Assembly (NCBI GenBank): GCA_036172245.1
Contig: JAYWIR010000074.1
Coordinates: 124,001 to 188,000 of the forward strand
From: Raillietiella orientalis
Taxonomy: Eukaryota
Reading direction: 5' to 3'
Length of the DNA: 64,000 nucleotides
Shown here: positions 1 to 64,000 of the stretch, one piece after another
Layout: each line of letters begins with the position of its first letter
Numbering within the stretch: the stretch's first letter is position 1
Notes under the pieces: generated by a model
Databases searched by the model: none
Told to the model about the DNA's origin: nothing
What the model saw: the letters and a program-made list of their open reading frames with translations, nothing else
Made by a program: the position numbers and the translations under genes

Positions 1-47
1 ATTGACCGTTGAAATGTTTTTAATAAACGTCCCGGCGTATCCGGGTG
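1..47 (+). mobile_element. 3' terminus of a non-LTR retrotransposon extending upstream of the window
   Basis: AATAAA (22-27) followed by cgtcccggcgtatccgggtg, the same terminal hairpin that ends the other elements in the window. Confidence 0.8.
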
Positions 48-1518
48 GCATCGCCCCCTGCTTTTTGTTTGCCCCATCAGAGAGAGAATTAAAAAGCGGA
101 CAAAGGACCTCCTCCGTATCGCTTTTTGGGGCAACGGGAGGGCCCGAGTCCCCTTAAAGGACTTGTGCGCTCCTCGTCGGGATGGTGGTCTAGGCCTCCT
201 GACGCTGAAGCGGCTGGAACTTCAGCTCCAGTACCGATTGTCGGCACTGGTTCCAGAGTTGTGGTGCACCTGTTGGTGTCTCCGTGCACGTCTCCTTCTC
301 CAGCAAGCCACCGGCAAGACGGGACTGACGTCGTTTCTTGCACTCCGTCGCCGCGTCAACCGATGCGGACTCCAGCTACGGAGGGTGGCTGCGCTGTACC
401 GGGAAAACCCAGGATTGCTTACCTGTCGCCCTTTGAACGGTTGTGCCTGGTTGCAGGAAACCTTTCGAACGTGGGAACAGTTCGGCATGCAACGCTCCGA
501 ACAGGAACGAAGGTTCCTGTTTGGGGGTTACAGAAGTTGCACGCTCCGCGAGATCCTTTAGGATCCTAAGAAGAGGGAGTGGACAGGAAGAACCCCCCTC
601 GCTGCTGCGCTGGACTCCTTAGTGGAACATCAGGACAGCGATGCTGAGGCGAAGTGGGAGGTTACAATAAAAATCTCCGGGAAGGAGAAGAAGCAGAGAG
701 AGTGGAAGACGGGCCAGCTAACTGATGCTGCGACCCCGAGTACGCCTCCTAATGGACTTCTGAAGTGGGAAGCGCTGCTGGATGTTCCGATTGAACATCT
801 GAAGTGGCCCCTGATTCTTATGAACACTTCCATCCTCCCCCTAAAATGGCAAGAGTCGGCATTCCTGTTGCAGCACTGGGGACTCCCCTGCAACGCCCGT
901 CGACACCACTAGACCTGGGGAGCGGTGGATCCCAATTGTGTAAGGTGCGGGGAACGGGAGTCCCTCCCCCACCTCCTAGTGGATCGTGTTGCCCTTCGGC
1001 CCCTTTGGTTCCGCTTTGTCGAGGCCATGGGAATCCCCTGCGGCAACCCCAGGGACGCACTGAAAGCCCTCTTCGCTGCTGACGCCCTTCGGCCAGCGGC
1101 CTCGTTAGCAGCTTTGTGCTGCCTACGCGGGATTGTCACCGTTTGGAGCAAGGCTACGGCAGGACAACGCGATCAGGCTGCCATCCAGCCAGCCTCCCAG
1201 TTCCTGAGGAGGGCGTTCCGATGGCCCCACCTGGATCCAGGAATACAGAAGGAGCTTGCCGACATCCTGCAAAGGATGCAACGTCCCAACTAGCAACTGT
1301 GATCCCTTCCCTTACCCTGCCAACTTTTTTTTTCTTTTTTGTTTTGTATTTTGTATTTCTTCCTTCCCCTCCTGCCGTAGTGGACCGTACGGGTCTGCGA
1401 ACCGGAGACCCGGCAGGCTCCGTGTTTGTTCGTGCGTGGCTGGAGCAATGGTCCAGCCACCGCACGTCTTTGTAAAAGTTTATTTTACAATAAACCCTTC
1501 GGATAAATCCGGGTGAAA
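48..1518 (+). mobile_element. Family F: 5'-truncated, degraded L1/Tx1-like element (C-terminal third of ORF2 plus 3' UTR)
   Basis: ORF fragments 163-561, 622-912 and 925-1293 match the ORF2 C-terminus of other copies (CAPRRDGGLGLL, PLKWQESA.LL.HWGLPCN, CxxC...HLL); T-rich UTR; AATAAA 1489 plus hairpin ending 1515. Confidence 0.85.
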
Positions 1519-2585
1519 ATCGAACTCCTTGTGGAGATCGACCGCGAATGCCAACGCTCCCGGCGTTCCGTCCTGCCGTCGGGGCCTGTTCTCGCCTGCG
1601 GCAGTGACTTTTTGAGCAGCCTGGCTTTGCTGCGCCACAACTTCCTGCAGCTGCATCCATGTACGCGCGAACAGCATGTTCCCTTCCATGGATTGTCCCG
1701 GAACGGCGTACGTTTGTTCCGGGCTCACCACAGATTTCGCGATACTTCCTAACCGCGCGACCGACAGCTTCGAAAACAACTTGACGTCCGAGTTCATCAA
1801 GGTGATAGGACGCCAGCTGTTAAGTTGACACAAGTCTCCGGCTTTCGGCAAAAACCGCACCTTCGCTGAACGGAAGGAATCCGGGACATTCCCGGATTCA
1901 CTCATCAGCGTCGCGAGTTTCAGCATCAAGGGAATGAGCTCCACTGCAAAGCACTGATAAAACTCTGCAGGAAGCCCATCCTCGCCTGGCGACTTTCGTC
2001 TCTCCAGCCCAGCGATTGCGGACGAAAATTCATCCGCCGTGAAGGGCTCGTTGAGACGTTCGCGCTCCTCCTCGCCGACAACACGAGCATCATGAGACAG
2101 GAGTATCTCAGAGAGAATATCCTCCGTCGGGGAATCCGCGGACAGCAAGGAGTAGTAGCGTCTCACAATTAGGCGTACTTCGGCTGGGGCCGAACATTCC
2201 TGGCCCTTGTCGTCCAACAGGCATGCTGCTCCGGACTGCCAGACCTGGCGCTCGGCCCTCGCCTTGTACTCTGCGAGACGCCCGACATCCGCGCGTCTCG
2301 AAAACGTGCGGGCCTGCACAAAGTCTCTACTGTTGGTTACGCCCTCATCGCAACCGCGTGGAAGCCGTTGCAAGGGGAATTGGCAACCGAACTCGCGGAC
2401 AGATCTTTTGAGATCGTCCTAGTCCGCAAGTTCTTGAATGGCAAACCCTCGGAGGTATCCACGTAGATGCTTCGCAGCCTCCGGTTGGCTATGCTAATCC
2501 ACCTGCATCCTCCAGTTTTGCAACGGAGGCACCCTGCCTGGCGGAAGGATCTCAAACTCCAGCCTGTGGTGGTGAGAAAGCCTAG

Positions 2586-3233
2586 TCAACAATGTCCCTC
2601 TCCTACCCACACGCGAATGCAGTTTTCATCGAGGAAAACGCGATCGAGCGATCTTTCCATTCCAGGTTCGCTGACCACCAAGTTGGCGGGGTGCACGCAC
2701 GCGCACATCTCGATGGGCAGCGCGCGCGCCCTCGGGCGGCTCCAATCGTCGGATAGCAGGAGGACGTTGAAGTCCCCAGCGACAAGGTGCGCCACTTGGA
2801 AATCGGAGATGTTGAGCCAGTGGCTCTGCACCTCACCAAAAAAAGCTTCTCTTTCCTCGAGGTAGCGAGAGCCACTCGGTGCGTAGACGTTCGTAAAGAC
2901 GAGATCGATGGACTCGGACCACTTGATTAAAAGCTGGCGTATTTTTCCGTCGTAATCGAAACGAACACTACGCACCGCGTTCGCCATTTTTCCACTTTCG
3001 AGGAACGCGAAGCCGCATGTGTGTGCGCCGCCGCACCGCCAATGTACCGTTTTGCCTGCGCGCTCCTCGATTTCGGCTGCCTGCTCGTAAGAGATTACGT
3101 GAATCTCCTGCAGGAGCGCGAGGTCGAAGGGGCGCACGGCGTTGACTACTAATCCCCTCTTCTCGTCGTTCTGCAGTCCGTTCACGTTCCAACACGTTAC
3201 GGACAGACGACGAGAAGACGCGATTCCCCGCAT
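2586..3233 (-). pseudogene. B1 ORF2 APE-type endonuclease domain (frame broken before the RT)
   Basis: MRGIASSRRLSVTCWNVNG...LQEIH...NVYAP...GDFN...SLDR; ATG at 3233 overlaps an upstream TAA (TAATG). Confidence 0.85.
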
Positions 3234-3790
3234 TACTGCTAAGAAGGTGGCGGCTTTTTGCAAGCTTTATCCGGCGAGCAGACAGCGAGCAGCACGACTG
3301 GCTGGAGGGGACGGTCGCCACCGTCCTCTGTCGTGCTGCATGCATGTAATGCCTCCACGCCAAGCTTAACCCCGTCTGGTTTCGTGGAGACTTCGCGTTG
3401 CTTCGCGGCGAGCGTTGCCTGGCTGCCTACTTTGATCGGCGCGCACACGCTTTTGAACGAGTTGTCCTCGTCTCGGTGATCGGAACGGCATCCATTTCGG
3501 AGTCCGAGGGGTGCATGTTCGATCGGGTTTGGGTCTTCCGCGAATAAGTGATAGCTTCTGCTGGATTGACAGCTGCCCTGTTGTCTATATCCGTCACCAG
3601 AGCAACGCTTTTGGTGACGGCTGCTTTCCCGGCGCGCGTTTTCAGCGTGTTTGCGAGCAGTTGCACGAGGGACCTTTGCTGAAGTCTTGTTTACTTCATT
3701 AAGGTTCCTCAGTTTGCTTGGCGCCGTAAATGGAGATTGTGCTCCATTGCCATCTTTGAAGCCATGCGCTTCTTTGGACGGGAGCGGTTC

Positions 3791-5152
3791 CTATGGCTCC
3801 GACACGCTCGTCATGGACGCTGCCTTTGGAAGGGCTTTTAATCCCTTCGTTGGCATGGCATCCGCGACAGTCAAGAGCTTGCTCTCCGACTGCGACGGCG
3901 TGAGATTTTTCTCCGCTTTCGCGGTGTTGGATCGCGACGCGGATTTTTTTTTGCCGACTTTCGATGTCGAAACGGCACAACCCTTCTTACCCGATTTGGG
4001 CTTCTCAGCCACTACAGGAGGTGAAGGAATGGACCTGACGGTACTGGAAGTGTCCTTACCGCCGTTGTCCATTGGCGTCCCCGCCGGTTGCTCGAACTCC
4101 GAGAGAGCTGGGCGTGCTTGGGAAAAAGAGCTATTGCGCCTAGGGGGACTTAACATTGCCCCGGATTCCCCGCACCCTTTCTTTTGCGGCTCCCCTGCCG
4201 CTTGTGGGGGCGCGCAGGGCTTCGCATGCGAGGCTTCCTGCTGCTTTAGGGCGACATTCCGTTTCCCGTTTTTACGGAATTTCTGCCGTGAGGTCTCCAA
4301 ATTTTGCGCAGATTTTTTCTTTTTATCCGCGCTTTGTTTTTTCAGATGGAGCTCCGCGGCTGCCTTTTCTCGCAAAAGATCTGAGCAATTTTTCAAATAA
4401 TGCTTGGATACTTTGCAATAATCGCATTTTCCAGCGGGGCATTTATCCAAACAATCCCCCTTCTTCCCACATTGCTCGCACGTTCTTACTTTGTTCACGA
4501 ACCACAGGTGGACGACCGTGGCTTTCACCTGTGGTATGGTGGGCAGCAGACGGCGGTCCGGCATTGTAAGCCGGACTCCAGCGACTCCGCTGTGTATGGA
4601 CGGGAAGTCCTTGAGGTTGCTAGGCACCCTCCACAGCGCATGGACCGTGGCTAATTTCGGGAACGCGTTCCGAATTTCAATATGCAAGATTTCCGACTCG
4701 ATGTCGAAAATCTCCGCCACAAATGAGTCGTCCATGGCGGCCGCGAAGACCTTCTGGTGACGGATCGACAACAGGGTGCGCAGCAAGCGTTGCACAAGTG
4801 CAGCGTCTTTGCAACGTACACTGAAATAGCCCATATCCTTCATGGGCATAATAGCGAGGAGGTCCTCCTCCCGCACCCTAACACGAGTCAGTTCATCGTT
4901 CAACTGATTCCCGTCGCGCGCAGAAAGAAAACCACTCACCTTATATCGGAGAGCAGGTCTATAGCCTTGGGCTACGTATGCCCGCAACTCCGACTCGTCG
5001 ACTGGTTTCCCTTTGACGGCTGCTGTGGCAGCAACGTCAGCAAAACTCCTCTCCATTCGCGAGAATGACGGAGTGGAGGCGGCCGTCGGTTCCGCGATTG
5101 CAGATCCGGATGCTGTTCCTCCAACTTCAGTAGCTTCGGGTTGGGTCGACAT
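3791..5152 (-). pseudogene. B1 ORF1, gag-like nucleic-acid-binding protein with two zinc knuckles; premature stop at 3791
   Basis: CEQCGKKGDCLDKC and CDYCKVSKHYLKNC, then a Lys/Ser-rich tail; similarity to B2 continues past the stop. Confidence 0.8.
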
Positions 5153-5230
5153 CGTCGTCAAAATGTACGACGCCAAGATGAAGCGGATGAAAGCACGGAG
5201 ACGAGAGCGAAGAAGTACACGTTTGCACTC

Positions 5231-7079
5231 GATTGAAATCTCCCGCTATCAGGTGAGCCTTCCGCACGTTGGTGTCCGCCAGCCAGTCGCGCTTCAGGGA
5301 TTCCAGCAGCCTGGTGCGGTCGCTGTATCCCTGCTTACCGCTGGAGCCGTACACATTCGTGACGATCAGTTTGATCGATTCGGACCAGCTGAGAATCAGT
5401 TAACCGACCCGAACGTCATCATCGAAGCGCACGCCCTTCACGGTAGCGTCGATGGCCGGCTTCACGAAGAACGCGACCCCGCAGGTGTTGCGGAGGCCGC
5501 AACGCCAATGCAACCGACCACCCGCGAACGTCTCGATCTCCTTGGCGTCTGCCGCGGTGATCACTTGGATCTCCTGCAGCAGGGCCAGGTCGAGCTCACG
5601 CAGGGTGTCGGCCGTAACTCGCATGTTACCGTCGTTGCGCAGCCCGTTGACGTTCCAACAGGCGGCGCGAATACGACGGCGACTGGCGAGCCCAACTGTT
5701 ACTCCTGGGAAGATGGCGATGCGGCGTCAGCCACCTGTTGGGGCGGAACGCTAGGTGGAGGACGAGGGTCAGGCGCTGCGTGCACCTGGTCCCCCTCCTC
5801 CATGGGTAACGGCGCGTCGAGCGGGTCACCCTCAGGTGGGGTCGCGCCTTCCTGATGGCCCTCCTCCATGGGGGCGGGCTGTTCAGGCTCGGGGACTGCA
5901 GGGAGGACATCGCTCACCTGCTCACCCTCTTCCATGAAGGTGGCCGTCTCGACGGCTTCCGAGCGTGGGAGTTCCCACTCCGGGATTCCCACGCTACCGC
6001 TACCTTCCTGCTTCCCCTCCTCGCTGGTGGAGGGGAGGTGCCTCCTGACTTGCGTCCCGACATCCTGCGGGGTGCCTCCGAGGAGAAGGATGCACTTCCG
6101 GCACCCAGGTCCGACTCACCTGTGGGGGCCTTTTTCGCGGGAGCCGGCCTTCGCACGGCCTTGCGTGAGGGGTTCTCACGCTCCACCAGCGTGGCCGCGA
6201 GCTCCTCCGCCGCCTTTGCGAACGCGGCGTACTCGGTGTCGACAGGCGCGTCGCGCGGCTCACCCTCTGTTTGCACAGAGGGTTCGCCGTCGCGAACTAC
6301 GGGCGCGACGGAAACGGCGAGGGGAGGCTCGTCGCCCCGGGTGGCATCTTACGGAACGACGATACGTTCCAGTGGCACCGTGCACTCGCGTACGGTTTTC
6401 GAACGCGGCCCGGGTTTTTTTCCCTTACCGGCCGGCTTCTCTTTCTTCTCCTTAAGAGGAGATTTTCTCTCTTTTCTGGCTGCTACAAGTTGCCAGCCCT
6501 CTTCACCTTCCGCCTCTTGGGAAGGTTTATCCTCCCTCTTTTCTTTTGCAGGTTGAGGATCTGGCAGCTTCAGGCGGCCAGCGTCCGCCTTAGGTCTAGT
6601 GACATTTACTGCGCGTTTCCCCTGCGCCTTCTTCGCGGCAGGAGGAACCGGGGAGTGGCGTTTTAGGCACACACGTCGAACGTGGCCCTTCTCCTCCCAC
6701 ATGTGGGATTGGATGTTAGGTCACCTCTTGCGAAGGTGTCCTACGGTATCGCAGTAGCCGCAATATTGAGGCTTTTCCACGTACCAGAAGTCCACGCTCT
6801 CTTGCGCGACCTCCAGCTTGTGGGGAAGCCCACAGTCCTTACTCACGGTTAACCGCGCTGCAGCCTGGCCTCCGAAATGGCAATTCAAGCCTTCAAAGGT
6901 TGTTGGCTTAGGCCACAGCACGTGCACCTCGCCGAACTTCCGTAGTTCTTGTGCTACCGCAGAGCGAGTCATACGGCTCGTTATTCCAGTGAGATGGACT
7001 ACCACGGAGCGGTCCATCGTCACCGGCAAGATCTTGCGGCCGTCGACGTTCAACGGGTTGGTGATAAGAGTCTGAGCCT
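5231..7079 (-). mobile_element. Family A, inverted 5' segment (most of ORF1 plus EN up to GDFN); host of B1
   Basis: ORF pieces 6721-7076, 6349-6702, 5914-6276, 5699-5992, 5400-5624 and 5231-5354 match A copies at 10097 and 17516; ends at HLIAGDFN where B1 begins. Confidence 0.85.
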
Positions 7080-7288
7080 TTGAAGACTGGGACCTTTTTA
7101 AGGAATCGGTCCGCAAGTTCTGTGAGCAGTTCCCCCTGGATCGCCTGCCTTCCGGATTCGGCGAGGGTGCTTGCAACCATCGAGCCTATTTACAGGCTCG
7201 TAGGTACGAGAGAACCCCTAATATCCGTCGCCTGGCCGAGTACCGCGCCGGGGCCGAACGCCAAGCCTGGCAATCCGGGTCGGCCAGC

Positions 7289-9877
7289 TTGCTGGACGAC
7301 CAGGGCGGGGAATGTTCATCCCCGGCGTCGGTACGGCATCTCGTGCGGAGTTTCTATTCCTCCCTTTACGCCAGGGAGCCCCCGGATCAAGACGCCTCAC
7401 GGCGCTTGCTTCCGGATGGCGCGCCGGCAATACGGGAGGAGGAGATGGGAAGCCTCGACGAGCCTTTTACCACCGGCGAAATTCTCGCCGGTATCAAAAG
7501 GCTCAAGAGGCGTAAAGCTCCAGGGGAAGACGGCTTGCCCGCGGAGTTCTTTCAGAGCTTCGCGGAAGAGCTGGCACCCCTGCTCCTTAAGCTTATCAGG
7601 CTGATCCGAGACGAAGGCGATGTTCCCGCCTCGTTTCGGTCAGCCAGAGTGAGGCTCCTTCCGAAAGGGGGAGACCTCAGGAATTTAAAGAACTGGCGTC
7701 CGATCACGATCCTGAATACGTACGCCAAGTTGATAGCAGGGCTATGGGCTTCGCGTCTGAGGCAGGTGGCAGAATCCGTAATTAGCCCGGAGCAGAATTA
7801 TGTTGTTCCCGGGCGAAGTATGAATGCCAAACTCTTCTTCGCAAGCACATGGTTGCACCTGCAGAGAAGAGAGAAGAAAGGGATTGGGAAAGTCGGCAAC
7901 CCCACATTGGGGCCGCCAGCCGGGCTGGGAAGGGAACCCCGGGCGGGGAAGGGGGCCCTAGCGCTCGCAGTGGATCTCCACAAAACGTTCGACTGTGTAG
8001 ACCAGGAACTTCTCTTGGAGCTCCTGGGTCGCATGGGCTTTCCACCCTCCCTGATTTCCAACCTGCGCTCTTGCTGGCGGAATGCGATGATAACCGTCTC
8101 TTTCAGCGGTCAAAAGGTGTATGGCGTGCCGGTGCGGCGGGGCATAAGGCAGGGAGGTAGCCTCAGCCCCCTGCTCTTCAGCACCTACATTGAGTTGGTG
8201 CTGAGAGCGAACAGGGTGACTTTGGCTACATTGCCGAGCTCGTGCCCCGGCACGCCCGCCGTAGCAGCCTATGCCGACGACCTTCTGCTCCTGTTACCTA
8301 TGTCCATCTTGGCGAAGGCGGTCGGAGACTTCTTCGATCTGCTCAGCCGCGGGAGCGGACTGCAGGTTAACAGGGCGAAGTCGTCGGTTGTGCCAATAGG
8401 TGCGGCGTGGGCAGGGCAGCAGTACTGTGTCCGTCTGGGGATCCCCACGGCGAGGTGCTTCAAGTACCTTGGTGTGCCGTTGGGGGACTACTCCCCTGCG
8501 GAAGCGTGGTCCAGCTGCCTCCAAAAAGTCGAGACGTCGATCGGCCCGTTCCCGGAAGGCAAGTTTCACTTGCCGGAACGGGCCGCGGTTTGGAACGCCT
8601 TCGCGGCCCCCATCCTCCGCCCCTTGCTTTTTGTTTTTCCCCCCACCGTGGAATCTAAGAAGAGGAAGAAGGACCTCCTCCGTATCGCCCTTTGGGGCAA
8701 GGGGAGGCCCCGAGTCCCACTGAAGGACTTGTGCGCTCCGCGTCGGGACGGCGGTCTTGGCCTCCTGACGCTGGAGCGCGTGGAGAAGCAGCTGCGGTGG
8801 CGAACCCTCGCCTTCGACGCGAAGATGTGGAGCACCCCTTGGTGCACTTCGGCCCGCCTCCTGGCCAGCCGTGTGTCCCGGTGCGATGGACTCGCGTCTT
8901 TTCTTCTGAGCCGTGGCGGGAAGATGCGAAGATGCGGCCTTCTGCTCGGGCGCATGGCAACATTGGCCAAGGAGAACAGCTGGATGGTTTGCTGCCCCGC
9001 CAACTCCCCCGCCTGGCTGGAGGAGAATATTGGAACGTGGGCAGTAGTTAACCAGAGAAGCCACGAGACGTGGAATCGTCTCCGATGCAGCCCCTACGCC
9101 CGCTGCACACTGCGGAATCTCCTGGAGAGTCCAGCAAGATGCACGTGGGCAGAGAAGACCTGCCTAGCTACGGCGCTGCCCTTCCTAAGGAGGGCACTTC
9201 ACAGCACCCGGACGCCAAGGTGGCAAGTCTCCTGCTGCATCGAGGGACGCGAGAAGTTGATCAGCGGCTGGACAACAGGAGAACTGGCCGACGCCACGAC
9301 CCCGAGCGTCCAGCCGAGAGGATTATTAAGATGGGGCGAGCTGCTCGCCATCCCCAGGGATGAGTTGAAGTGGCCCCCGGTGATGAAGGAATCCAGGATC
9401 CTACCCCTCAAGTGGTAAGAGTCGGCGTTGCTTTTGTTGCACTGGGGTCTACCCTGCAACGCGCGCCGCTTCCACTGGACGAGGGGAGCTGTGGATCCTG
9501 CGTGTGCCAGGTGCGGGGAGCGGGAGTCGCTTCCCCACCTTATTGTGGATTGTGCTGCCCTCCGACCCCTTTGGGAACGGTTCGGGACGACCCTCGGGCT
9601 GCCTACGGGCAGCACCCCCAGAGACGTTCTTCGGCCCCTCTTCGTGAAGGACGCACTGCAGCCAGCCGCAGCCATCGCAGCCTTGTGCTGCGTCCGTGGC
9701 ATCGTGGGGGCATGGAGCGACGCCAACAACGAAGGAGTGGGTCCACAGGCGAGGGATGTCATCCCGTATGCCAAACGCTTCTTGCAAAGAGCTGCCGGAT
9801 GGCCACAACTGAAGAATATGCAGACTGACCTCGAGGGCTCCGTTCGACGAATGGGCCCTCCCCACAGCGACCAGTGA
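7289..9877 (+). pseudogene. Reverse transcriptase part of family A ORF2, one in-frame stop at 9416-9418, no attached endonuclease
   Basis: KAPGEDG, WRPITIL, VDLHKTFD, GIRQGGSLSP, YADD, KYLG, GGLG, CARCGERESLPHLIVDC. Confidence 0.9.
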
Positions 9878-10050
9878 TCCCTTCCCTGCCCTCCAACTTC
9901 TTTTTGTTTGTTTCTTTTTATTTTACTTTTTGTCTTATCCCCATCCCCCTTCGCTGTCGGGGAGTGCCACGCCGGGCTGCGTCCCGGTGTCCCGACAGGT
10001 CCTGTGTTTACGGCCGTGGTAGGCCTTGTACCACGCATGTAAAGTTTATT

Positions 10051-10077
10051 AATAAACGCCCCGGGCGTACCCGGGTG
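10051..10077 (+). terminator. Representative element 3' end: AATAAA plus GC stem-loop, no poly(A); 13 instances in the window
   Basis: Also at 22, 1489, 14233, 23140, 35461, 40371, 51133, 56761, 62378 (+) and 14611-14635, 25273-25306, 40952-40977 (-); function inferred. Confidence 0.7.
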
Positions 10078-10096
10078 ATAACGCCGAATCCCTTGG

Positions 10097-10113
10097 CGAG
10101 TGGACGTGTTTTT
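10097..10113 (+). promoter_or_regulatory. Conserved 5'-terminal motif containing (G/A)GACGTGT, candidate internal promoter element
   Basis: At the 5' tip of A (10097, 17516), B (11808; variant at 5231 minus), E (37378 minus) and C (23907; 63777 minus), while the rest of the UTRs diverge; absent from D. Confidence 0.5.
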
Positions 10114-17320: not shown

Positions 17321-17498
17321 TATCCAGGTTTCTCAGTGGGAACTGAGTGCTCCCGGCCCTTGTTGTCCAGCAAGCTGGCCGACCCGGATTGCCAGGCTTG
17401 CCTCTCGGCTCCCGCTCGATACTCTGCTATCCTGCGCATGTCGGGGGTTCTCGCGTAACGTCGGGCCTGAAGATAGCGCCTTTCGTTACGCGGCCCCT

Positions 17499-28922: not shown

Positions 28923-28935
28923 AAAAGGGGAAGAC

Positions 28936-30721: not shown

Positions 30722-31562
30722 CCTGGCAGCTGGTCCTGCTGCACGAAACCACTGCAGGTCTTCCGCCGCGATCTCCTCGGCGCTTCTTTTCTAGTTTCGT
30801 TTGGAAAACTTCCCCTCTCCGGGCACACACGAGCACAATGAACTGATTAACTTGTCAAGCGCACAATACTTCGAGCCGCGGGGCAAGTTCACCGACTCGG
30901 CAGGAGAGGAGCGATCTCCCGACTGTCAAGAAGGTGACTCCGTTGCCGCCTTTTAAAGGCGTAGCGAAAGCAACGCTTCCAGAGAACGCAGCGAAAATCC
31001 CGGAGGTTTCCGCAACTAATGTCGCGGAAGCCTCCGAAAATCGCGAAGGCGAATGGAAGGTTGTGGAGAGGAGGAAAGAAAAATCTCCAAAGAAAGCTCC
31101 GCAACCTCCATCCCTCAGCTCTTCCAAAGGAAAAAGCAGTCGCGCGAATACGAAAACACGCGCGGCTTGTGACTCTTCCAAGGAAAAAGCCAACGCCTTC
31201 AACGCGTGCAAGTCCGCTTCTGTGACCGCCGAGAAGACCATTCCGGTGCAATCGGACGGATGCAAGCGCACATCGATCGTGCGAGCTTCAGACTTCGCAA
31301 AGGAGTCCGATAACGCAGCTGAACGACGCGTAACTCGCGCGGGAGCGAGCGCCCGCAGGGCTGAAGCCCTGAGGCGTGACACACTCGCCGCGGAACGGCG
31401 AGTGCTCACCCCGGAACCCACAGGTTCTGCACCCGGGGAGGAGCACCCGATTACGTGCAGCACAGTTGAGGCCGGTGGCGACCGCGCCCGCCAGCCCGTC
31501 GTGCTGCTTACTGCCCGCTCGCCGGGTGAGGCGAGCACCACGGCCTCGCTTTCCCAGCCGTG

Positions 31563-51169: not shown

Positions 51170-51185
51170 CCTGCCGAGTCGGCGA

Positions 51186-54100: not shown

Positions 54101-56797
54101 AAAAGGGGAAGTCGGCGTGCTGGAGAAGAGAAATCTGGCAACAGATATCTTCTGCATCCAGTACGACGGCCAAAAGCGACAGTCGTCTGAGGACATCGTG
54201 GATGCCTTTCACAGGCATTACACGAAACACTTCAGGCGACAACAGCTGTGTCGCTCTAGTCAACAGGCCTTCTTGAGCTTTCTCGAGAAGAGGACCGACG
54301 ACCTCCAGCGGAACAGACTGGAGGAGGAGTTCTCCGAAGAAGAGGTGAAGACTGCGTTTGGGCAACTTCGCAAGGACGTGGCAGCGGGCCCTGACAGTGT
54401 ACCCATCACGCACTATCAGCGGTACCTGCACGCCTAGCTGCGCTTGTTCCACCAGTTGACCCTCTGCATCCGGTAAGAAGGCAGACTACCTCAGTCCTTC
54501 TACGAGAGTCGGATGAGATTGCTGCCGAAAGGAGGCGACTCTACCCAGATCGCCCAATGGAGGCCAATCTCGATTCTAAACTCCGATGCCAAGTGGTTGG
54601 CGAAGATCTGTTCCAACCGCTTACGCAAGGTCATGTCGAGGCTGATCTCTCCGGTCCAGACATGTGCAGTCCCAGGACGACACATGTCGGACAATGTCAA
54701 GTGTGCCCAGGCCACTGTTGGACTCAGTCGATACGTCGGCGAGAACCTGGTGCTGGAGTTCACTGACATGGAGAAGGCCTTCGACTCCATCGACCACGGG
54801 ATGCTGCTAAAGGTTCTGGAGAAGCTAGGGCTTCCGGAACACTTCAGCAACTTCGTGAGGGCGGTACTCCAGAACCAGTACTGCCGGATCAAGATCAACG
54901 GCCAGTAGACGGCAGCGATCAGGATGGAACGAGGAGTCCGACAGCTCGACTCGCTAAGTCCGATGCTGTTCGTCATCTATATGGAGGCGTTGTCGTCCTT
55001 TATCGAGAAGAGCGGACGACTAAGCGGGATTACCATCGATAGCCAGCGTCTTACCCATCTGGCATACGCCGATGATCTACTCTTCTTCATCAAGGGAGAG
55101 AAAAATCAGCGTGCGTTTCTGGATGTGGTGGACCTGATGGAACAGGGCTTGGGCTTGAAAATCAATTCCCAGAAGAGCCAGCTTTTGCCCGTCGGAATAC
55201 TGGATCTCTCCACTCTAACGGGTAGTGGATTCCGTACGGTGGACACGGCCAAGTACCTGGGAGTCTACATCGGCGACGGCTCTGCGTCGAAGCTGCTGTG
55301 GAAGGAAATCCTGGGGAAAACGGCCAAGGAAGCAGCCAAGTACACCCGAACGGACCTTGGGATGAAGCGAAAGGCCAACATATGGACCGGAGTACTCCTT
55401 CCGAAAGTGCTCTTCGGGGCGGCCTTCGCGAGGATGAACAAGGAAACCACGAGGGAGTTCGACAAGCTGCAGAGAAAATCACTGTGGGGCCACTATCGCC
55501 CAAGAGTCCGACTAAAACCCCTGTGTCGTCCCAGGGAAGAAGGCGGTTCCGGGATGAAGTCGCTTGCAGTATCCATGGAAATCATGGATACGCGACACAT
55601 CCTGGACATGGCCACTTACTGGGATGACTGGCCGTATGCGGCGCACCGGGCCTACGCTTTGTTGCTTAACAACTCGAAAGGCCTGATGACTGCGCTGCTA
55701 GGCAAAGTAGGGGAATGGAAAAGAATCGACCCGACCTGGAGGAGGAAGCAACGGCTGGTGCCTAAGCACCAAATCAAGATCGTGCCGCGAAGCAGGGAAC
55801 TCTGGCAGGACGAGTCCATCCTGGTGATCCCTTGGTTGCTTCCTGTCCCGCCGGACACGAGAAGCTGGATCTACCAGCGGTCCAGTGTTACCCTACTGCA
55901 AATCCAGGAGTGGAGGCGAGGAGGCTACCTACATCAAACACGTATACTTCGGTATACAGAGATGATGTTAGGAAGGTTTACCCACAGGACCCGCGAAGTG
56001 TGGTTCAACCACAACGACTTCGCTTGGTCGAGGGTAACCAGAACAAACCTCCGAAGGTTTATCCAAGAAAACGACCGTGACACCAGTGCCCTCCAGGAAG
56101 CCACCGAACGCTACGGGAGTGAACGGTTCAACCTGTTAGCGATCGGCACGACGCTCTGGAGGAGTGACCTTCCGCCGGGCACCCAGGATGACCTCCTGAT
56201 GTTTTATAACGGAGGAATCCAGAGTGGGTCCCGATTGCAGCACTTTACAGGAAGACGGGAAGACCGAGACTGCGCAGCATGTGGAGACGACGACACGAGA
56301 CTTCACGTCTTGACGTGTCCCACACTGCTGCATGGCTGGCTGATCCTGAAAAGGATCATAGGACTTACCAACAAGTCCGTTATGGAGATCCTCGCCGGGA
56401 TGTTTCATGGGGATGGTAATGTTCCCTGTTACAATCCCATGGTGAGGACGACCATAGCCCTCTTCATCACCGCCATACTTGTGCGGTGGTGGAAAATGAG
56501 GAAAGCCAGGAGAGCCGCACCACCGATGGAGATCCTACAAGGGCTCTTGAAGAGGGAAATCGGCATCGGGAACTGCGGGAAGATCCACGCCTGGACGTAC
56601 CGATTCATCCTGAAGAGGATCCAGGACGACGCCCGGGACCATCCAGCTGGAATTCCCCCCTGAAAAGCAGAACTCTAGTGCAACCCAAGGACCCCCAAGT
56701 GCAAAATAATTGTATTGAGTGAGTGAGGGTGCGAATGTAAATTTTGTATTTTTATAGAAAAATAAACTTACCCCACCCCTTGTGGGACTTGGGGAAA
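51186..56797 (+). mobile_element. Family D copy D2, full length, several stops and frameshifts
   Basis: ORF1 pieces 51353-53131; ORF2 pieces 53145-54437, 54513-54908, 54924-56663; bounded by 16-mers at 51170 and 56798. Confidence 0.92.
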
Positions 56798-56813
56798 CCT
56801 GCCGAGTCGGCGA

Positions 56814-59800
56814 ACTTGCTCCGCGGCTCAAAGTATTGTGCTCTTGACAAAGTAATTAGTTAATTGTGCTCGTGTGTGCCCGGAGAGGGGAAGTTTTCCA
56901 GACGAAACTAAAAAAAAGAAGCGGCGAGGAGATCGCGGCAAAAGACCTGCAGTGGTCCCGTGCAGAAAGACCAGCTGCCAGGATGCAGGCACCTAGAAGA
57001 GGAGTGGAGAGACCGCCGTCGTCCATGGAAGCCATGGAGGTAACGTGCGGCAACGGCGAGGCGGTGGCAGGCATGCCGAGGATCGCGCCCGCGGCGGGCT
57101 TTGCTGCGCCGGCGGCGGCGATGCCAAGGGTCGTGCCCGCGGCCGCGACGCCGAGGATCGTGCCCACGGCGGGGAAGGTCGCGCCTGCGGCGGCGATGCC
57201 GAGGGTGCCGCCCGCGACGGTAACGGCGGCAACGTCGATGTTTGCGCCCGCGGCGGTGGCTTCCCAGGCGGGACCCGCGGGCGTCCACGCGGTGCAGGGA
57301 GCGACGCCATCTTGTTCGGCTGCGGCGTCGCAGCCCTTTTCTTATGCGTCGGTGGCGGCTGGACAGGCGAGTGTCCACCCACCTCGGAAATTCGGTAAGC
57401 CGCTTAGCGGAAATGTACTAAAAGTGGACCGACCAATAGACGAAATAGGCCCCAACGTGAAGCCCATTATCTTCAAGACGGGGCTAATAAAATTTAATAA
57501 CATCAGGGAGGTCTATTTGTCCCTCGACAAGACGGACATAGACTTTGATCGCATTCAGGCGATCATTCCATCGAACAACGGGTTCACAGTCTTTACAGAC
57601 TGTGAAAACATTAGAGAGCGATTGATCCAGAAGGAGATCAATATACAAGGACGGATGGTTTGTGGTATTGGCGAGATGCCATACACAACCGTCTTTTTAA
57701 ACGGCATCTCCATCCTCACACCGCAACTAGCGGTGTGGAATTACTTGGAGCAGTTTGGGGAAGTTCTGGACCTTGATTTCCAGAACTTCTCTGACAACAT
57801 ATTTTCTGGCGACATGATCGCCAAGATGAAGTTGACGGAGGGAGCTGTGATCCCTGGATTGGCCGTTATTGACGAACAATCCCAGGGAGTGAATGTGCGT
57901 TACCGGCAACAACCGGTATTCTGCACCGGGTGCAAGCAGTTCGGCCACAGGGCCGGGGCTTGCCCAACGTGTCGTTGTTTCCGCTGCGGCAAAGTAGGAC
58001 ATCAAGTCCGAAACTGCCCGCAGTTGGAGGTGTGCTCCTTCTGCAAAAAACACGGACATGCGAAATGGAGCTGTCCGGAGTTTGAAAACTGCAGAAGGAT
58101 TCGAGGTCTCTCTCCCGTGAGAGAGAGAAACATCAAGGAGGCCGAACTGCCTCAGATGGCAGGAAGGCAGAAAAAAGTGAAAGAAGCCGTCCCGGTGTCG
58201 GCGGACGGCTTCATAGAAGTGGGAAAGAAGGGAAAGAGGAGGATGCTCGTCAAGGAGCAAGGAACTCCTCAAATCCTGGAAGCAGCAGAGCAGGAAGGCG
58301 ACAAGACGGAGGTAGCGCAGGAAGGCGCGAAGGAAGAGAGACAGGAAGCCACTAAAGTGTCGCAGGAAGCTCTGCAGACTACGGAGGAGTTGGCAACACT
58401 AACGGAGGAGACCATGGAGGTGCAGAGCGGTCCTCAGCAAGAGAAAATCTTGCAGAAGATCCGCACTGCACAAGAGAACATCAACCAGGTGGTGGAGGTC
58501 GCCGAACGCGAGAAGTTAGAGGAACAGCTTCTCGACGTGAAAGCGAACTTCTGCGCCAAGGTCGAGATAGAGGCGCTATCTCGAAAATTGATCGCGCAGG
58601 CGGAACACTCTACGGAGGAGGCGGAAATTACCGACCTCACAGGTACGAAGAGTGACGCCGGCAGCGAGAAGCCCGCTGCTTCTTCATTGTCTGGAAGAGC
58701 ACGCTCTCTCAGACAGAAGAAGCTAAGGAAGGCCAAAAAATAGGTCTTCCCCTTTTATGGCCTCTTCCCAATCAACCGCCAGGAGGATAAACATCGTCTC
58801 CTGGAACGTAAACAATGTGGTCGACCAGGGAAAAAGAAGAATGATTGTGCGGACCATCGCACAACAAGACATCGTGTGCCTGCAGGAGACCCACAGGATG
58901 GATCTGGAGATAAGCCAGCGAATGGAACGGCGATTCAACGGGCAGATGTTCGTCAACGAAGGAGAACGGAACACGAAGGGTGTGGCGGTGCTAATAAAGA
59001 ACCACTTAGCCCCTACTATTCTGGAAGTGTTCTGTCCCCAACCCGGACGAATCATCGGCGTGCGACTGGCCTGGTCCGCGACTGTTCACTTCATCCTGGT
59101 GAACGTTTACGGGCCGCACAGGCTAAAACATCGTTGTGCGGAGGCGCTGCATGCAACACTCCAGCAAAAGGTCGCCCCTAAGGACGTCGTGATTGTGCTG
59201 GCGATCTCAACATCTTGGATGTGATCATTCATTCGGAAGACGCCAGAGGAAGGACGGCGTATCGACGGCTATCCGAGGAGTTCGGAGTGGTGTGGCGAAC
59301 TGCAAGTCACAAGCCGATCGATCACGTCCTGCACAGCACCGAAGTTGGAAATCGCATTCAGGGTTTTCGAGACATTATGACCACGGTGTCTGATCACCCC
59401 CTGGTGCAGTTTTCCCTAAGAACGGAGAATCCTCGGAGGAGGCAAGGCACCAGGGCGGCGCTCAACAGCATGCCCGCCTGGTTCGAAACCCATCCCGGAC
59501 ATCAGGCTGTCCTGGAGACGATTCTGAAGGAAACAACAATCCGAAGAGTCGCCGACTGAGACAGCCTGAAACACAGGATACACCTGTTTGCAAACATGCA
59601 CTTCGGAGATAGGCGCTTGGGGCAGGAGGCGTAACGGGAGCTGCACATCCAAGATCGCTCCCTCTCAAAGTACTTCGATCAGTACGAGAGTCGGTACGTC
59701 TTGAAGAACATAAAAGGGGAAGTCGGCGTGCTGGAGAAGAGAAATCTGGCAACAGATATCTTCTGCATCCGGTACGACGGTCGAAAGCGACAGACGTCTG

Positions 59801-62414
59801 AGGAAATCGTGGATGCCTTACAAAGGCATTACACGAAACACGTTAGGCGACTACATCTCTGTCGCTCTAGTCAACAGGCCTTTCTGAGCTACCTCGAGAA
59901 GAAGACCGACGATCTCCAGCGGAACAGACTGGAGGGGAAATTCTCCGAAGACGAGGTCTAGACTGCGTTTGGTCAACTAGGCAAGGACGTGGCAGCGGGC
60001 CCTGACAGCGTACCCAACACTCACTATCAGCGGTACTTGCATGCTTACCTGCGTTTGTTCCACCAGTTGGCCCTCTGCATCCGAAAAGAAGGAAGACTCC
60101 CGGTATCCTTCTACGAGAGTAGGATGAGCTTGCTGCCAAAAAGAGGCGATCACACGCAGGTCGCTCAATGGAGGCCGATCTCGATCCTGAACTCAGATGC
60201 CAAGTGGTTGGCGAAGATCTGGTCCAACCGCTTAGGCAAGGTCATGTCGAGGCTCATGTCTCCGGTCCACACGTGTGCAGTCCCTGGACGTCACATGTCG
60301 GACAATGTCAAGTGTGCCCAGGCCACCGTCGGACTAAGCCGATACGTCGGCGAGAATCTGGCGCTGGTGTTCACTGACATGGAGAAGGCTTTCGATTCCA
60401 TCGACCATGCGATGCTGCTGAAGGTTCTGGAGAAGCCACGCCTTCCGGAACACTTCAGCAACTTCGTGAGGGTGGTACTCCAGAACCAGTACTGCCGAAT
60501 CAAAATCAACAACCAGGAGACGGCAGCAATCCGGATGGAACGGGGAGTCCGGCAGGGCGATTCGATAAGACGGATGCTGTTCGTCATCTACATGGAGGCG
60601 TTGTCGTCCTTTATCGAGAAGAGCGGACGACTGCAAGGCATAACAATCGATGGCCAGCGTCTTACCCATCTGGCATACGATGATGATCTACTCTTCTTTG
60701 TCAAGGGAGAGAGAAATCAACGAGCGTTTCTGGATGTGGTAGACCTGATGGATCAAGGCCTCGGTCTAAAGATCAACGCCCAGAAAAGCCAGCTCTTGCG
60801 CGTTGGTATCTTCGATCTCTCCACTCTAGCGGGGAGAGGATTCCGAATGGTGGACAAGGCCACATATCTGGGTGTCTACATTGGCGACGTCTCCGCGTGG
60901 AAGCTATTGTGGATCGAGATCCTAGGGAAAACGGCCAAGGAAGCAGCCAAGTACACCCGAACGGAACTTGGAAAGCAGCGATAGGCCAACATATGGAACG
61001 GAGGACTTCTTCCAAAAGTGCTTTCCGGGGCGGCCGTCGCGAGGATGAACAAGGAAACCACGAGGGAGTTCGACAATCTGCAGAGAAAAACACTGTGGGG
61101 CCACTATCGCCCAAGAGTCCGACTAAAACCCCTGTGTCGTCCCAGGGAAGAAGGCGGTTCCGGGATGAAGTCGCTTGCACACTCCATAGAAATCATGGAT
61201 ACGCGACACATCCTGGACATTGCCACTCACTGGGATGACTGGCCCTATGCGGCGCACAGGGAATACGCGTTGTTGTTGAAGAACTCGAAAGGCCTGATGA
61301 CTGCTCTGCTAGGCCGAGCATGCGAATGGAAACATATCGACCCAACGTGGACGAGGAAGCAACGCCTGTTGCGAAAGCACAAAATCAAAATCGTGCCGAG
61401 AAGCAGGGAACTCTGACAGGACGAGTACATCCTGGTGATCCCTTGGATGCTTCCTGTCCCGCCGGACACGAGAAGCTGGATCCACCAGCGGTCCAGAGTT
61501 ACCCTTCAACGAATCCAGGAGTGGAAACGAGGATGGTACCTACATTACACTCGTATGCTTAGGTATATAGAGATGATGTTTGGATGGTTTACCCACATGA
61601 CTCGCGAAGTGTGGTTCAATCACAACGACTTTTCGTGGTCCAGGTTAACCAAAACAAACCTACGGAGACTAATTGAAGAAGAACACAATGATATTAGTTT
61701 CCTCCAGGAAGCCGCCGATCGCTACGGGAGTGACCGGATCAACTTGTTAGCGATATGCACCACGCTCTGGAGGAGTGACCTTCCGCCGGGCACCCAGGAT
61801 GGCCTCCTGATGTTTTATCATGGAGGAATCTAGAGTGGGTCCCGATTGCAGCACTACACCGGAAAAAGGGAAGATCGAGACTGCACAGCATGTCGAGACA
61901 TCGCCACGAGATTCCACGTCTTGACGTGTCCCACATTGCTGCATGACTGGCTGATCCTGAAAAGGAACATCGGACTCACCACCAGGTACGTAATGGAGAT
62001 CCTCGCCGGGATGTTTCAGAGGAATGGTAATGTTCCCTGTTACAATCCCATGGTGAGGACGACCATCGCCCTCTTCATCACCGCCATACTTGTGCGGTGG
62101 TGGAAAATGAGGAAAGCCAGAAGAGCCGCACCACCGATGGAGATCCTACAAGGGCTCCTGAAGAGAGAAATCGAGATTAGAAACTGTGGGAAAATCCAAG
62201 CCTGGACGTACCGATTCATCCTGAAGAGGATAAAAGACGACGCCCGGGACCAAACAGCAGGAAACCCACCATGGGTGCAGAACTTGTGAGAACCCAAGGA
62301 CTTCGTAGTGGTAAAAAAAGTGCTAATGGTATGGATGAGATTGTAGTGTGAATGTTTTTATAGATAAATTTCAGAAAAATAAATTTACCCCACCCCTCGT
62401 GGGACTCGGGGAAA
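56814..62414 (+). mobile_element. Family D copy D3, full length, most divergent; ORF1 intact, ORF2 heavily broken (YDDD in place of YADD)
   Basis: ORF2 pieces 58757-62289; divergent 3' UTR; AATAAA 62378 plus hairpin; target copy actgccgagtcggcga 62415-62430. Confidence 0.9.
56983..58743 (+). CDS. Intact ORF1 of D3 (586 aa): Ala/Pro repeats, central globular region, three CCHC zinc knuckles, Glu-rich probable coiled-coil tail
   Basis: Open from ATG 56983 to TAG 58743; three CX2CX4HX4C motifs; 13-nt spacer to the ORF2 ATG. Confidence 0.88.
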   Translation: MQAPRRGVERPPSSMEAMEVTCGNGEAVAGMPRIAPAAGFAAPAAAMPRVVPAAATPRIVPTAGKVAPAAAMPRVPPATVTAATSMFAPAAVASQAGPAGVHAVQGATPSCSAAASQPFSYASVAAGQASVHPPRKFGKPLSGNVLKVDRPIDEIGPNVKPIIFKTGLIKFNNIREVYLSLDKTDIDFDRIQAIIPSNNGFTVFTDCENIRERLIQKEINIQGRMVCGIGEMPYTTVFLNGISILTPQLAVWNYLEQFGEVLDLDFQNFSDNIFSGDMIAKMKLTEGAVIPGLAVIDEQSQGVNVRYRQQPVFCTGCKQFGHRAGACPTCRCFRCGKVGHQVRNCPQLEVCSFCKKHGHAKWSCPEFENCRRIRGLSPVRERNIKEAELPQMAGRQKKVKEAVPVSADGFIEVGKKGKRRMLVKEQGTPQILEAAEQEGDKTEVAQEGAKEERQEATKVSQEALQTTEELATLTEETMEVQSGPQQEKILQKIRTAQENINQVVEVAEREKLEEQLLDVKANFCAKVEIEALSRKLIAQAEHSTEEAEITDLTGTKSDAGSEKPAASSLSGRARSLRQKKLRKAKK

Positions 62415-62430
62415 ACTGCCGAGTCGGCGA

Positions 62431-63660
62431 TGGGGCGACTGCATGCAGCGTGCTTTTGCTCGTCGCGACGCTGCTTTTTACGGCTTTCGTAGCCTTTGCA
62501 GTGGAGCCTGCGCTACAGTGGGGCTGTCCGGAACTCGGAAGGGACAACGGAAAGGGGCAAGAAGTCTTCGCACTGTTGCGATCTTCCTGTTTTCCTACCT
62601 TTCTCTCCAGGGTGTTACGGAGATTTCCTGGTTCCTGGCTCGGAGAGGTGCCTGCGAGTTTGGCAGAGAGGGAAGGCACTGCACGCGTCAAACGCTCGCA
62701 CCCCTTTTTAATTTTCTTCCACGCCGTGACTTTCCCCTTTCGGGACGTTGCGGGCGGGGATGCTTTCCTTTCATCCACGGATCGCTCGTCGTTTTTTGCG
62801 AGTTTTTGCGGACGACGTTTTTTATTTGCCGCTGCGGCTTTTCTTGCAGTGGTCTCTTGAACCCGACGAATTTCCGCTGCGGCTCTTTTTCTTGCAAGTC
62901 CCGGGCACTTTTTGATTTCGTGCCCGGAATCTTTGCAATAGCGGCATCTTGGAGAGGGGCACTCTTTAATTCGCTGCCCCTCCTTGCCGCACTGCTCGCA
63001 CGCGCGAGTCTGGCCTATGAACCACAGGTGAACGACCGTGCCGTTCACCTGCAGCTTCTCAGGCACAACACGCCTGTTCGCGACGGTGATCCGTGCGGAG
63101 GCTTTTCCAATGTGGACATAGGGGAAATCCTTTAGAGGATTTGGCCTCCCCCACAGAGTGTGCACGGTGGCGAACTTCGCCTGCACACTTACGACATCGC
63201 GGTCGGAGATTTCAGGTTCGATGTCGCACAATTGAACGACAAAAGAGTCGTGCATCGCGGTAGGTAGGACTTCCTTGCCATTGATGGTTAACGGCGTACG
63301 GAGAAGGCGCTGCACAAGTGCTGCGTTCTTGCACCGAATCTTGGTATATTCCATCCTGCCAGCAGGCATTATGGCAAGAAGTTCCTTCTCGCGAACGCCT
63401 ATCCGTACGAGCTCATCATTGAGCTCACGACCTATTCTCCCGTTAAGTGGCACACTGACCTTATAACGGAGTGCAGGCATGTATGCTGATGACACATATG
63501 CCTGGAACTCCGCATCGCAGGGTCCTGGTCTTTTGGAGGTAACGGCGGCGTAACTCCTCACCGGGGGCGAGGAAACCATTACGGAGGATGCGGCCACTTC
63601 AAGTGCAGCTGAAGTGCATCCAGTGGCTTGCTCCTCCACACTATCCTGTGTACTGGCGAT
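62431..63660 (-). pseudogene. C2 ORF1 N-terminal part up to the D insertion site; start codon mutated to ATC
   Basis: ORF track 62371-63639 matches C1 ORF1 and reaches SPTRQ at the insertion point. Confidence 0.8.
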
Positions 63661-64000
63661 GTTGCACTATGCTACTTGTCAGATTGCACAGTTACACACA
63701 AGTGCGAGCAAAAACGCAGGCACAAAGTTGCCCGATCGTTGGCGCGGACAGACGCGGAAACACGTCTGCACTGTACGAGCGCAAGAGATCGAACGGATCT
63801 CCGGAGGGCGGCAATAGTACTGGTGTGGGAGAGCGAAAAGTTGCGCTGTCGCCTACCTGCTTCGGCCAGCCGTCGAGGCCGCGGCTCGGGGCGTGCAGTT
63901 CGACGATTACGGTCGTGTCGGCCAGCTGACTCTCAGGTGGTCCGACTCGATCGATCTGATCGTCAGGAACGTGTACGCACCGAGCGGCGCGGAGGATGTG

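Follow-up and report, generated by a model that had tools for sequence, protein, structure and literature searches.

A 64-kb block of nested LINEs in Raillietiella orientalis with probable family-specific insertion into the coding sequences of sister elements

The stretch analysed here, a window of 64,000 nucleotides from Raillietiella orientalis (contig JAYWIR010000074.1, positions 124,001 to 188,000), consists of long interspersed nuclear elements (LINEs) inserted into one another. A tiling built from self-comparison, tblastn with the intact second open reading frames (ORF2s) and a scan for shared ends covers 64000 of 64000 bases, so that 100% of the window is accounted for by nested LINE copies of the APE-endonuclease/reverse transcriptase (RT) type. 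Because the segment list is gapless, every insert has another element as its host, as the initial annotation of this DNA had proposed. The block is probably best understood as nested copies of one radiated APE-LINE lineage, which would comprise families A, B, C and E, the E-like copy X1 and the more distant family D, inserting at family-specific words in the coding regions of sister families. All counts and junctions reported here come from this one window, and the numbers of events are small. Its GC content ranges from 53 to 62%, both strands carry long open frames, and self-comparison reveals two large inverted repeats. Ten copies are full length (A2, A4, B1, C1, C2, E1 and D0 to D3) and five are 5'-truncated or cut (X1, A1, A5, E2 and X0); the predominance of full-length copies is unusual for L1-type elements.

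Domain content was assessed with Pfam on 13 long open reading frames: RVT_1 was reported in five, Exo_endo_phos in five, zf-CCHC in two and nothing in three. Two ORF2s are intact, that of C1 (31530-35135, plus strand, 1201 codons) and that of D0 (25404-29048, minus strand, 1214 codons). Both encode Exo_endo_phos followed by RVT_1, at residues 25-233 (E 2.2e-11) and 474-744 (E 2.3e-19) in C1 and at residues 56-256 (E 9e-18) and 504-750 (E 1e-34) in D0. A regular expression also locates a C-terminal CCHC-like motif, C..C(8-9)H(4)C, at residue 1085 of both proteins, for neither of which Pfam reports zf-RVT. A C-terminal CCHC in ORF2 is a defining trait of the L1 group. The best matches in the Protein Data Bank (PDB) are human LINE-1 ORF2p (five distinct sequences, E 1.3e-38 to 1.4e-32), with R2 proteins matching more weakly (E about 1e-12 to 1e-10). 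Judged by domain architecture, the elements are L1-group LINEs, and the earlier label 'L1/Tx1-like' fits in that sense (APE endonuclease, RT and CCHC, with LINE-1 ORF2p nearest in the PDB). In the first open reading frame (ORF1) of D, Pfam finds zf-CCHC (E 2.6e-4 and 1.9e-4), and motif searches find one zinc knuckle in C2 ORF1 and three in D3 ORF1, an open frame of 627 codons; Pfam finds no domain in the ORF1 of C or B.

The element ends are likewise conserved. Families A, B, C and E have a common 5' motif, GACGTGTTT, and a common 3' tail, AATAAACG..CCGGGTGAnAA; the 3' tail of D differs (..ACCCCACCCCTTGTGGGACTTGGGGAAA). Conserved 5' ends read ..GAGYGSGGACGTGTTT.. in A, B, C and E and AACTTGC.. 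in D. The 3' ends are fixed tails finishing in AA or AAA, without long poly(A). The initial annotation had described an 'AATAAA-hairpin' at the 3' ends. The tail is indeed conserved, and the structure lacks covariation support: none of the five predicted consensus-fold pairs shows a compensatory change. Single-sequence folds of the 3' tail give z-scores of -1.88, -0.09, -0.61 and +0.64.

Relationships among the families were examined with an RT tree (query-anchored alignment, FastTree) in which the outgroup consisted of 12 unnamed database proteins. A group of A1, A4 and A2 together with E1 and the database protein P0051 is sister to B, C1 and C2 (support 0.996), and D branches off as the sister of this whole A, B, C and E group (support 0.992). 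RT identity is 49-68% among the A, E, B and C families and 29-34% against D. In this tree A, B, C, D and E form one clade.

The closest database proteins, P0051 and P0093, are 58-60% identical and come from metagenome fragments (contigs of 2870 and 1425 bases). P0051, of 619 residues, is 73% identical to the E1 RT and 58% to that of C1; the 73% figure means that an environmental sample contains a relative of family E. Apart from these two, a search of 1.8 billion representatives returned nothing above 37% identity. The sea-turtle protein P0052 was rejected as a close relative, as its high score reflects four repeated RT fragments of about 30-35% identity. The ESM Atlas returned only generic RT and endonuclease clusters that carry no taxa, and the protein searches yielded neither a close relative with a name nor any green-algal name among their matches. 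A metagenome scan by RT alignment yielded at least 80 loci, every one of them distant (best-segment identity 19-40%), and the P0051 contig is not among the 80. The D 3' tail had no match in a separate metagenome scan, and the A/B-type 3' tail pattern had none in genome_contigs or viral_contigs.

The centre of the window is organized around A4 (plus strand), which is split by B2 (plus) and E1 (minus); E1 is split by A2 (plus) and C1 (plus), and C1 by D0 (minus). The 5' part of A4 (10093-11808, with GACGTGTTT at 10103) runs up to the B site, its middle part (14263-14605, ORF2 residues ~165-280) finishes in the left copy of the E target-site duplication (TSD), and its 3' part (37379-40400), the third A piece of the initial annotation, begins with the right copy of this 17-bp TSD. 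B2 (11809-14262) is an internally deleted B that retains the 5' 1660 nt and ORF2 from residue ~1047 to the end, with ATTTCAATC as its TSD. E1 comprises a 3' part (14606-17509, ORF2 residue ~305 to the end, 3' tail at 14606-14635), a middle part (23170-23905, residues ~62-307) and a 5' part (35491-37378, 5' end motif at 37372-37364). The full-length A2 (17510-23169, 5660 nt) lies inside E1. C1 is divided into the 5' end and ORF1 up to the D site (23906-25268) and a 3' part with the intact ORF2 (30890-35490); the full-length D0 (25269-30889) lies antisense in its ORF1.

To the right, E2 (plus) is split by C2 (minus), which is itself split by a tandem of D1, D2 and D3 (plus). E2 is 5'-truncated, extends from 40401 to the C site at 40947 and continues beyond that site at 63779-64000 (ORF2 residues ~62-133), where the window end cuts it. 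The 3' and 5' parts of C2 occupy 40948-45532 and 62431-63778. The tandem spans 45533-62430, with bodies at 45547-51170, 51185-56798 and 56813-62415, each bounded by the 15-mer CCTGCCGAGTCGGYG. To the left, A1 (plus) stands head-to-tail ahead of A4, preceded by A5 (minus) with B1 (minus), the latter split by X1 (plus), which follows X0. Of the seven host-insert relations, B in A alone has the sense orientation; the six antisense ones are A in E, two cases of C in E, D in C, E in A and X1 in B.

The junction words and coordinates of the initial annotation were all located in the sequence. The B word, ATTTCAATC/GGAGATTTCAATC, occurs at 11796-11808 and 14263 and reverse-complemented at 5231; the C word, ATCTCTTGCGC, at 23895 and reverse-complemented at 40937 and 63779; and the A word as CCCCAAATCCC at 17499 and 23170 and as CGCCGAATCCC at 10082. 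Six copies of the D word, CTGCCGAGTCGGYG, surround the four D bodies (45533, 51171, 56799 and 62416 on the plus strand, 25255 and 30890 on the minus strand). The 17-mer ACGCTCCGGAATCTCCA, at 14589 and 37379, is the 17-bp TSD of E in A that had been noted before. None of the five core words occurs again in the 64 kb. TSD lengths are 9 bp for B (ATTTCAATC), 11 bp for C (ATCTCTTGCGC) and A2 (CCCCAAATCCC), 15 bp for D (CCTGCCGAGTCGGYG) and 17 bp for E1 (ACGCTCCGGAATCTCCA). Both TSD copies of C2 are perfect, and the right TSD of C1 is diverged though its ORF2 is intact. Read on the element strand, the flank words are CCTGCCGAGTCGG.. for D, ATCTCTTGCGC for C, CSCCRAATCCC for A, ATTTCAATC for B and TGGAGATTCCGGAGCGT for E; by eye they show no nick-site consensus across families, in agreement with the earlier statement that the targets share none.

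The nesting model was checked by in-silico excision, in which each insert and one TSD copy were removed and the host frame was re-read. In E1 an open frame of 382 codons then runs through the C and A sites, and in A4 one of 409 codons runs through the B and E sites; with the D copies removed, C2 ORF1 reads through the D site as an open frame of 631 codons. As excision gives continuous host frames, the model is validated base by base. In addition, three coded sequencing runs (X1 to X3; run X1, a public one, is distinct from element X1) were compared with the window. Only run X1 holds the stretch (0.36 of sampled words), the other two matching low-complexity spots only. Contigs of this run cross both the C1/D0 junction (24962-25556, with 11 differences over 595 bases) and the D/C junction (30600-31115). 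Among the 15 joints listed, of 16 in all, one links 23894 to 35491, the predicted empty C site in another E copy, and a second, weaker one links 23911 to 35512; at the likeness setting used, or where one side is short, contig joints may arise from repeats. No joint of 25254 to 30904, the D site, is among those 15, and the contigs are uninformative on D-free C copies.

The targets lie at defined positions of the host coding sequences. C enters GCG CAA GAG AT (AQEI), about 10 codons past the catalytic LQE of the E endonuclease, and in the A endonuclease B enters the GDFN motif (GGA GAT TTC AAT C). The A target in E1 is G GGA TTT GGG G (GFGE), within the linker that follows the endonuclease, and the E target is ACG CTC CGG AAT CTC CA (TLRNLQ), about 25 codons upstream in the same linker of A4. 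D enters the C-terminal part of C ORF1. The insertion graph runs from D into C, from C into E, from B into A, from A into E and from E into A, and A and E are a reciprocal pair.

Independent insertions were distinguished from copied junctions by comparing the divergence of host flanks with that of inserts; equal divergence, set beforehand as the refuting condition, signifies one insertion that was duplicated. C, D and A have each inserted at the same site in independent events. For C, the two copies are 95.1% identical in their 5' parts and 94.6% in their 3' parts, and their E flanks are only 75.0% and 80.0% identical. The endonucleases of E1 and E2 share 87 of 133 amino acids and 295 of 399 nucleotides, with 47 of 51 nucleotides shared within 20 bp of the target, and beyond the ends of C the identity profile steps down, from about 95% to roughly 70-77%. 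We read these values as two insertions into two diverged E hosts, consistent with the claim that C occurs twice in hosts with differing endonucleases. Both E copies with the exact C word carry the insert, and neither word nor insert is present there in the six other endonuclease-bearing copies (A2, A4, A5, C1, C2 and B1).

The four D bodies all lie antisense to C at one 15-mer of its ORF1. Each is flanked by its own 15-mer, so that either host contains one 15-mer more than it has bodies. Pairwise identities are 97.7% for D0-D2, 95.1% for D0-D1, 95.0% for D1-D2 and 88.4-88.6% for D3 against the others. A ..GGTG variant is present in the 5'-side TSD copies of D0 (30890-30903) and D1 (45533-45546), all others having ..GGCG, and the D0-D1 divergence of 4.9% equals that of C1-C2 (4.9-5.4%). 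The shared variant and the equal divergence make a C[D] composite of about 11.6 kb the probable common source of C1[D0] and C2[D1]; such a composite would have been carried in one piece into a second E host. D2 and D3 would then have arrived after this copying. We infer at least three separate D events at one word, from two subfamilies; the four occurrences of D that had been reported at one site are present, as four bodies.

For A, the copy in E1 (A2) has a perfect 11-bp TSD. The second A target, CGCCGAATCCC (10082-10092, plus strand), lies between the 3' end of A1 and the 5' end of A4; it matches the A2 TSD at 9 of 11 positions and reads G GGA TTC GGC G on the host strand. Both differences from the E1 site fall at synonymous third positions of the same GFG codons, and the flanks of the two sites differ. 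The homologous site within A1 itself matches CGCCGAATCCC at 10 of 11 positions. With A1 and A4, A2 has an identity of only 76-78%, so diverged A subfamilies keep the same target. The sequences suggest that these subfamilies hit homologous sites in two hosts, twice at one of them, in two or three events; both GGGATTYGGSG sites of the initial annotation were recovered. By our own arithmetic, a second random insertion at the same base and orientation of a 5.5-kb host has a probability of about 1 in 11,000, and a random 11-mer matches at 9 or more of 11 positions with a probability of about 1.3e-4. For C, D and A, each coincidence of base and orientation is thus about 1e-4 or less.

Several observations weigh against family-specific targeting. 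The B word is present at both of its sites, as annotated, and the two B occurrences are not independent: identity is 90.1% between B1 and B2 and 89.5% and 93.0% between the A hosts, which points to one ancestral insertion whose A[B] composite was copied. The proposed targeting is supported for three of the five families, C, D and A, whose repeated sites do not all derive from one duplicated insertion; the double occurrence of B as evidence of it is refuted. D0 and D1 are probably one shared event. The host of A1 and A4 is lost apart from 11 bp. A fourth copy of the C word, the right TSD of C1 (35491-35501, ATCTCCCGGGC), has 3 mismatches in 11. The identity step at the C ends is not located at one base, as the target sits in a conserved patch and the E flanks near it are locally conserved. 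Only one E event has both junctions visible, the 3' junction of E2 lying beyond the window; X1, which is about 70% like E1 in nucleotide sequence, sits elsewhere, at B ORF2 residue ~583, so if X1 is counted as family E, E is not strictly site-specific. Two head-to-tail joins, of the X0 3' end to X1 (45-55) and of the A4 3' end to E2 (40395-40405), lack a TSD. The resulting event count is modest: two for C, at least three for D, two or three for A and one each for B and E.

These points bear on four other explanations. One is that each family inserted once at random and that the repeated sites arose by segmental or inverted duplication or by composite retrotransposition. This is true for B, probably true for D0 and D1, and in keeping with the two large inverted repeats. 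As a full account it is unlikely: the C hosts are 20-25% diverged as compared with 5% for the inserts, D3 differs by 11.5% from its tandem neighbours while each D body has its own 15-mer, and at the two A sites the flanks are unlike and the differences within the word are synonymous. We also considered that the block consists of two simple palindromes formed by inverted duplication; the right-hand one is ruled out by the divergence of hosts as compared with inserts, and this origin is kept for A[B]. A variant, which we consider quite improbable, is that a single E[C[D]] segment underwent inverted duplication, after which gene conversion homogenised the C[D] core while the E flanks drifted. C1[D0] and C2[D1-3] are indeed inverted and 5-17 kb apart, and patches of the E flanks are 92-97% alike (35753-35872 and 35993-36039). 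Conversion tracts would nevertheless need to stop at both C termini, and flank identity falls to 53-77% within 100-200 bp. Furthermore, E2 is 5'-truncated and adjoins the A4 3' end, unlike E1, and the D tandem array and the A sites would be left unexplained.

The remaining two explanations concern the region rather than the copies. Elements might be drawn to a chromatin domain, such as a centromere-type island of transposable elements (TEs), with the shared sites being chance or hotspots. The window is 100% TE, Zepp and ZeppL elements are described as clustering in one block per chromosome (PMC3446292, PMC8226300), and, given the two TSD-less junctions and the position of X1, fixed words do not account for every event. 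On its own this explanation is highly improbable, as two C, at least three D and two or three A events share the same base, orientation and TSD length, each such coincidence having the low probability calculated above. It may well operate alongside sequence specificity. Highly repetitive regions are also prone to misassembly, and collapsed or misjoined repeats could give false nesting. We regard this as extremely improbable: the junctions carry matched TSDs, excision restores frames, the copies are 2-25% different rather than identical, and run X1 contigs cross the C1/D0 and D/C junctions.

Under the favoured explanation, that of a radiated lineage with family-specific words, new copies would enter by target-primed reverse transcription at short family-specific sequences. 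The window itself shows insertions of the target-primed type whose TSD length and orientation are fixed, at words particular to each family. D would use the 15-mer in C ORF1, C the word GCG-CAA-GAG-AT (AQEI) in the E endonuclease, and A the word G-GGA-TTY-GGS-G (GFG) in the linker past the endonuclease, both in E and in another related element. E would use the 17-mer at the TLRNLQ codons of the same linker in A, and B the word GGA-GAT-TTC-AAT-C (GDFN) in the A endonuclease. By analogy with the R1, Tx1L and L1 endonucleases, the APE domain of each family is predicted to recognise its word and to place a bottom-strand nick where the TSD begins on its 5' side; the specificity would thus be located in each family's endonuclease. 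The TSD would recreate the target on both sides of the insert, and repeated insertion would build head-to-tail arrays. The D1-D2-D3 and A1-A4 arrays are explained in this way, because the TSD contains the word and both flanks stay targetable. Targets in conserved coding patches would remain recognisable in diverged hosts. Hosts that bear inserts may be copied as composites, as with A[B] and probably C[D], and their junctions would spread without a new targeting event. B and E are presumed to be as specific as the other families, and the pattern may extend across the genome.

A stronger version is conceivable, though somewhat less likely than not: the LINEs may constitute a closed, self-feeding network that grows only into itself, with A and E as reciprocal partners, forming and maintaining a TE-only domain, possibly centromere-like, with no host-gene target. 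Evolution would have fitted each endonuclease to a short, locally conserved stretch of coding sequence in a sister family, which it cuts, and every new A or E copy would be a new landing site for its partner. Diverged subfamilies (A2 as opposed to A1 and A4; D3 as opposed to D0-D2) would keep their target as a sequence that the host element cannot easily change.

The left part of the window completes the inventory. X0 (1-50, plus strand) is the 3' terminus of an element located for the most part beyond the left edge of the window, with the 3' tail AATAAACGTCCCGGCGTATCCGGGTGGCA. X1 (51-1520, plus) is an E-like, 5'-truncated copy spanning ORF2 residue ~792 to the end, with a 3' tail at 1489-1520, and lies antisense in B1; it has tblastn support and is 69.8% identical in nucleotides to E1 16058-14629. 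B1 (1521-5230, minus) is a full-length B with the 5' end, a 484-codon ORF1 and ORF2 residues 8-583, inserted in A5 at the GDFN codons. The initial annotation had treated 1521-3572 and 3573-5230 as separate pieces; they form one B, which is collinear with C1 over ORF1 and ORF2 (B 239-875 corresponds to C1 267-900, and B 1891-3598 to C1 1916-3624). The first 1658 nt of B1 are 89.8% identical to B2, and B1, unlike B2, continues into a C-like ORF2 with 58-66% amino acid identity to C1. Its host A5 (5231-7078, minus) is a 5'-truncated A, and A5[B1] appears to be a copy of the A[B] composite. A1 (7079-10081, plus) is the 3' 3 kb of an A, with a 779-780-codon open frame that includes the RT, and is 84.1% identical to the 3' part of A4 and 77.9% to A2.

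Some features of these copies concern how they were made. The A1 start (window 7068-7090) lies within 1 nt of the position in A4 at which the first strand would be nicked for E, the right edge of the 17-bp E TSD, and the neighbour abutting it is the 5'-truncated end of A5 (minus), not E. Twin priming of an A[B] RNA is a candidate origin of A5[B1] and A1: the topology fits, but the identities (84.1% as compared with 89.5-93%) do not agree with a single source. At both TSD-less joins the downstream partner is E or E-like and 5'-truncated. Head-to-tail joins of this type would result if the RT, while copying one RNA, jumped to a second one at its 3' end.

The wider interest of the block lies in its landing sites. 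Sequence-specific LINEs are already known to use ribosomal RNA genes, small nuclear RNA genes, microsatellites, telomeres and unrelated transposons. Here, the sites would be the coding sequences of sister LINEs, with one reciprocal pair. Such families would provide a natural series of related APE endonucleases with different 9-17-bp targets, of value for studying specificity change and for engineered insertion. They would also offer a concrete mechanism by which TE-only islands, such as algal Zepp-type centromere blocks, grow by self-insertion, and a case in which parasites live on other parasites and co-evolve with their own supply of targets. Composites of host and insert that are copied as units can mimic site specificity, and studies of such sites need to control for this.

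Among the closest known systems are Zepp (Coccomyxa/Chlorella) and ZeppL (Chlamydomonas and relatives), which passages of PMC8226300, PMC3446292 and PMC9940879 describe as L1-type LINEs nested in their own copies, with one cluster per chromosome and one or two families per species; such elements occur almost exclusively in clusters of this type. Blanc et al. 2012 likewise report one nested-element cluster per chromosome (PMC3446292, in part). The copies in the window share this clustering within their own kind. In contrast to one or two self-targeting families, there are at least five here, each with its own word in another sister family. Where ZeppL arrays are mainly 5'-truncated 3' ends according to the passages of PMC8226300, ten copies here are full length and five truncated or cut. 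The 3' ends also have a fixed tail, ..GGGTGAnAA, rather than long poly(A). The passages of these three papers mention no defined target words for Zepp or ZeppL.

The specificity itself finds parallels elsewhere. LINEs such as R1, R2, Keno, Utopia and TRAS/SART occupy a 'safe haven', a fixed word in a multicopy, dispensable target, and transposons are among the listed targets of specific LINEs (PMC4640811, in part). The elements described here resemble them in the fixed word, the TSD or small deletion and the fixed orientation. R1/R2-type targets are host genes or simple repeats, whereas here the target is another parasite, whose supply grows with the parasites. Another parallel is the Tx1 clade, for which Kojima 2015 (PMC4494074) reports families that target piggyBac, Mariner, Harbinger and long terminal repeat (LTR) elements. 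Examples are Tx1L in Tx1D, Tx1-Mar in Mariner-N4_AMi and Tx1-9_AMi in Harbinger, with Tx1-8_Crp and Tx1-4_AMi in LTR elements.

Literature searches (titles, abstract starts and passages, without subscription journals and Repbase Reports) found no reciprocal or multi-family targeting of LINE coding sequences by LINEs. With the Tx1 clade, as portrayed in those passages of PMC4494074, the window shares APE-type LINEs, family-specific sites inside other mobile elements that differ between related families, and tandem copies produced by sequential insertion. Sequence-specific insertion, the Tx1-type trait, is present for A, C and D within the window, with a single event each for B and E. Tx1 targets in those passages are unrelated transposons; those described here are sister-LINE coding sequences, reciprocally so for A and E. 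The pattern joins Tx1-type targeting of TEs with Zepp-type self-nesting.

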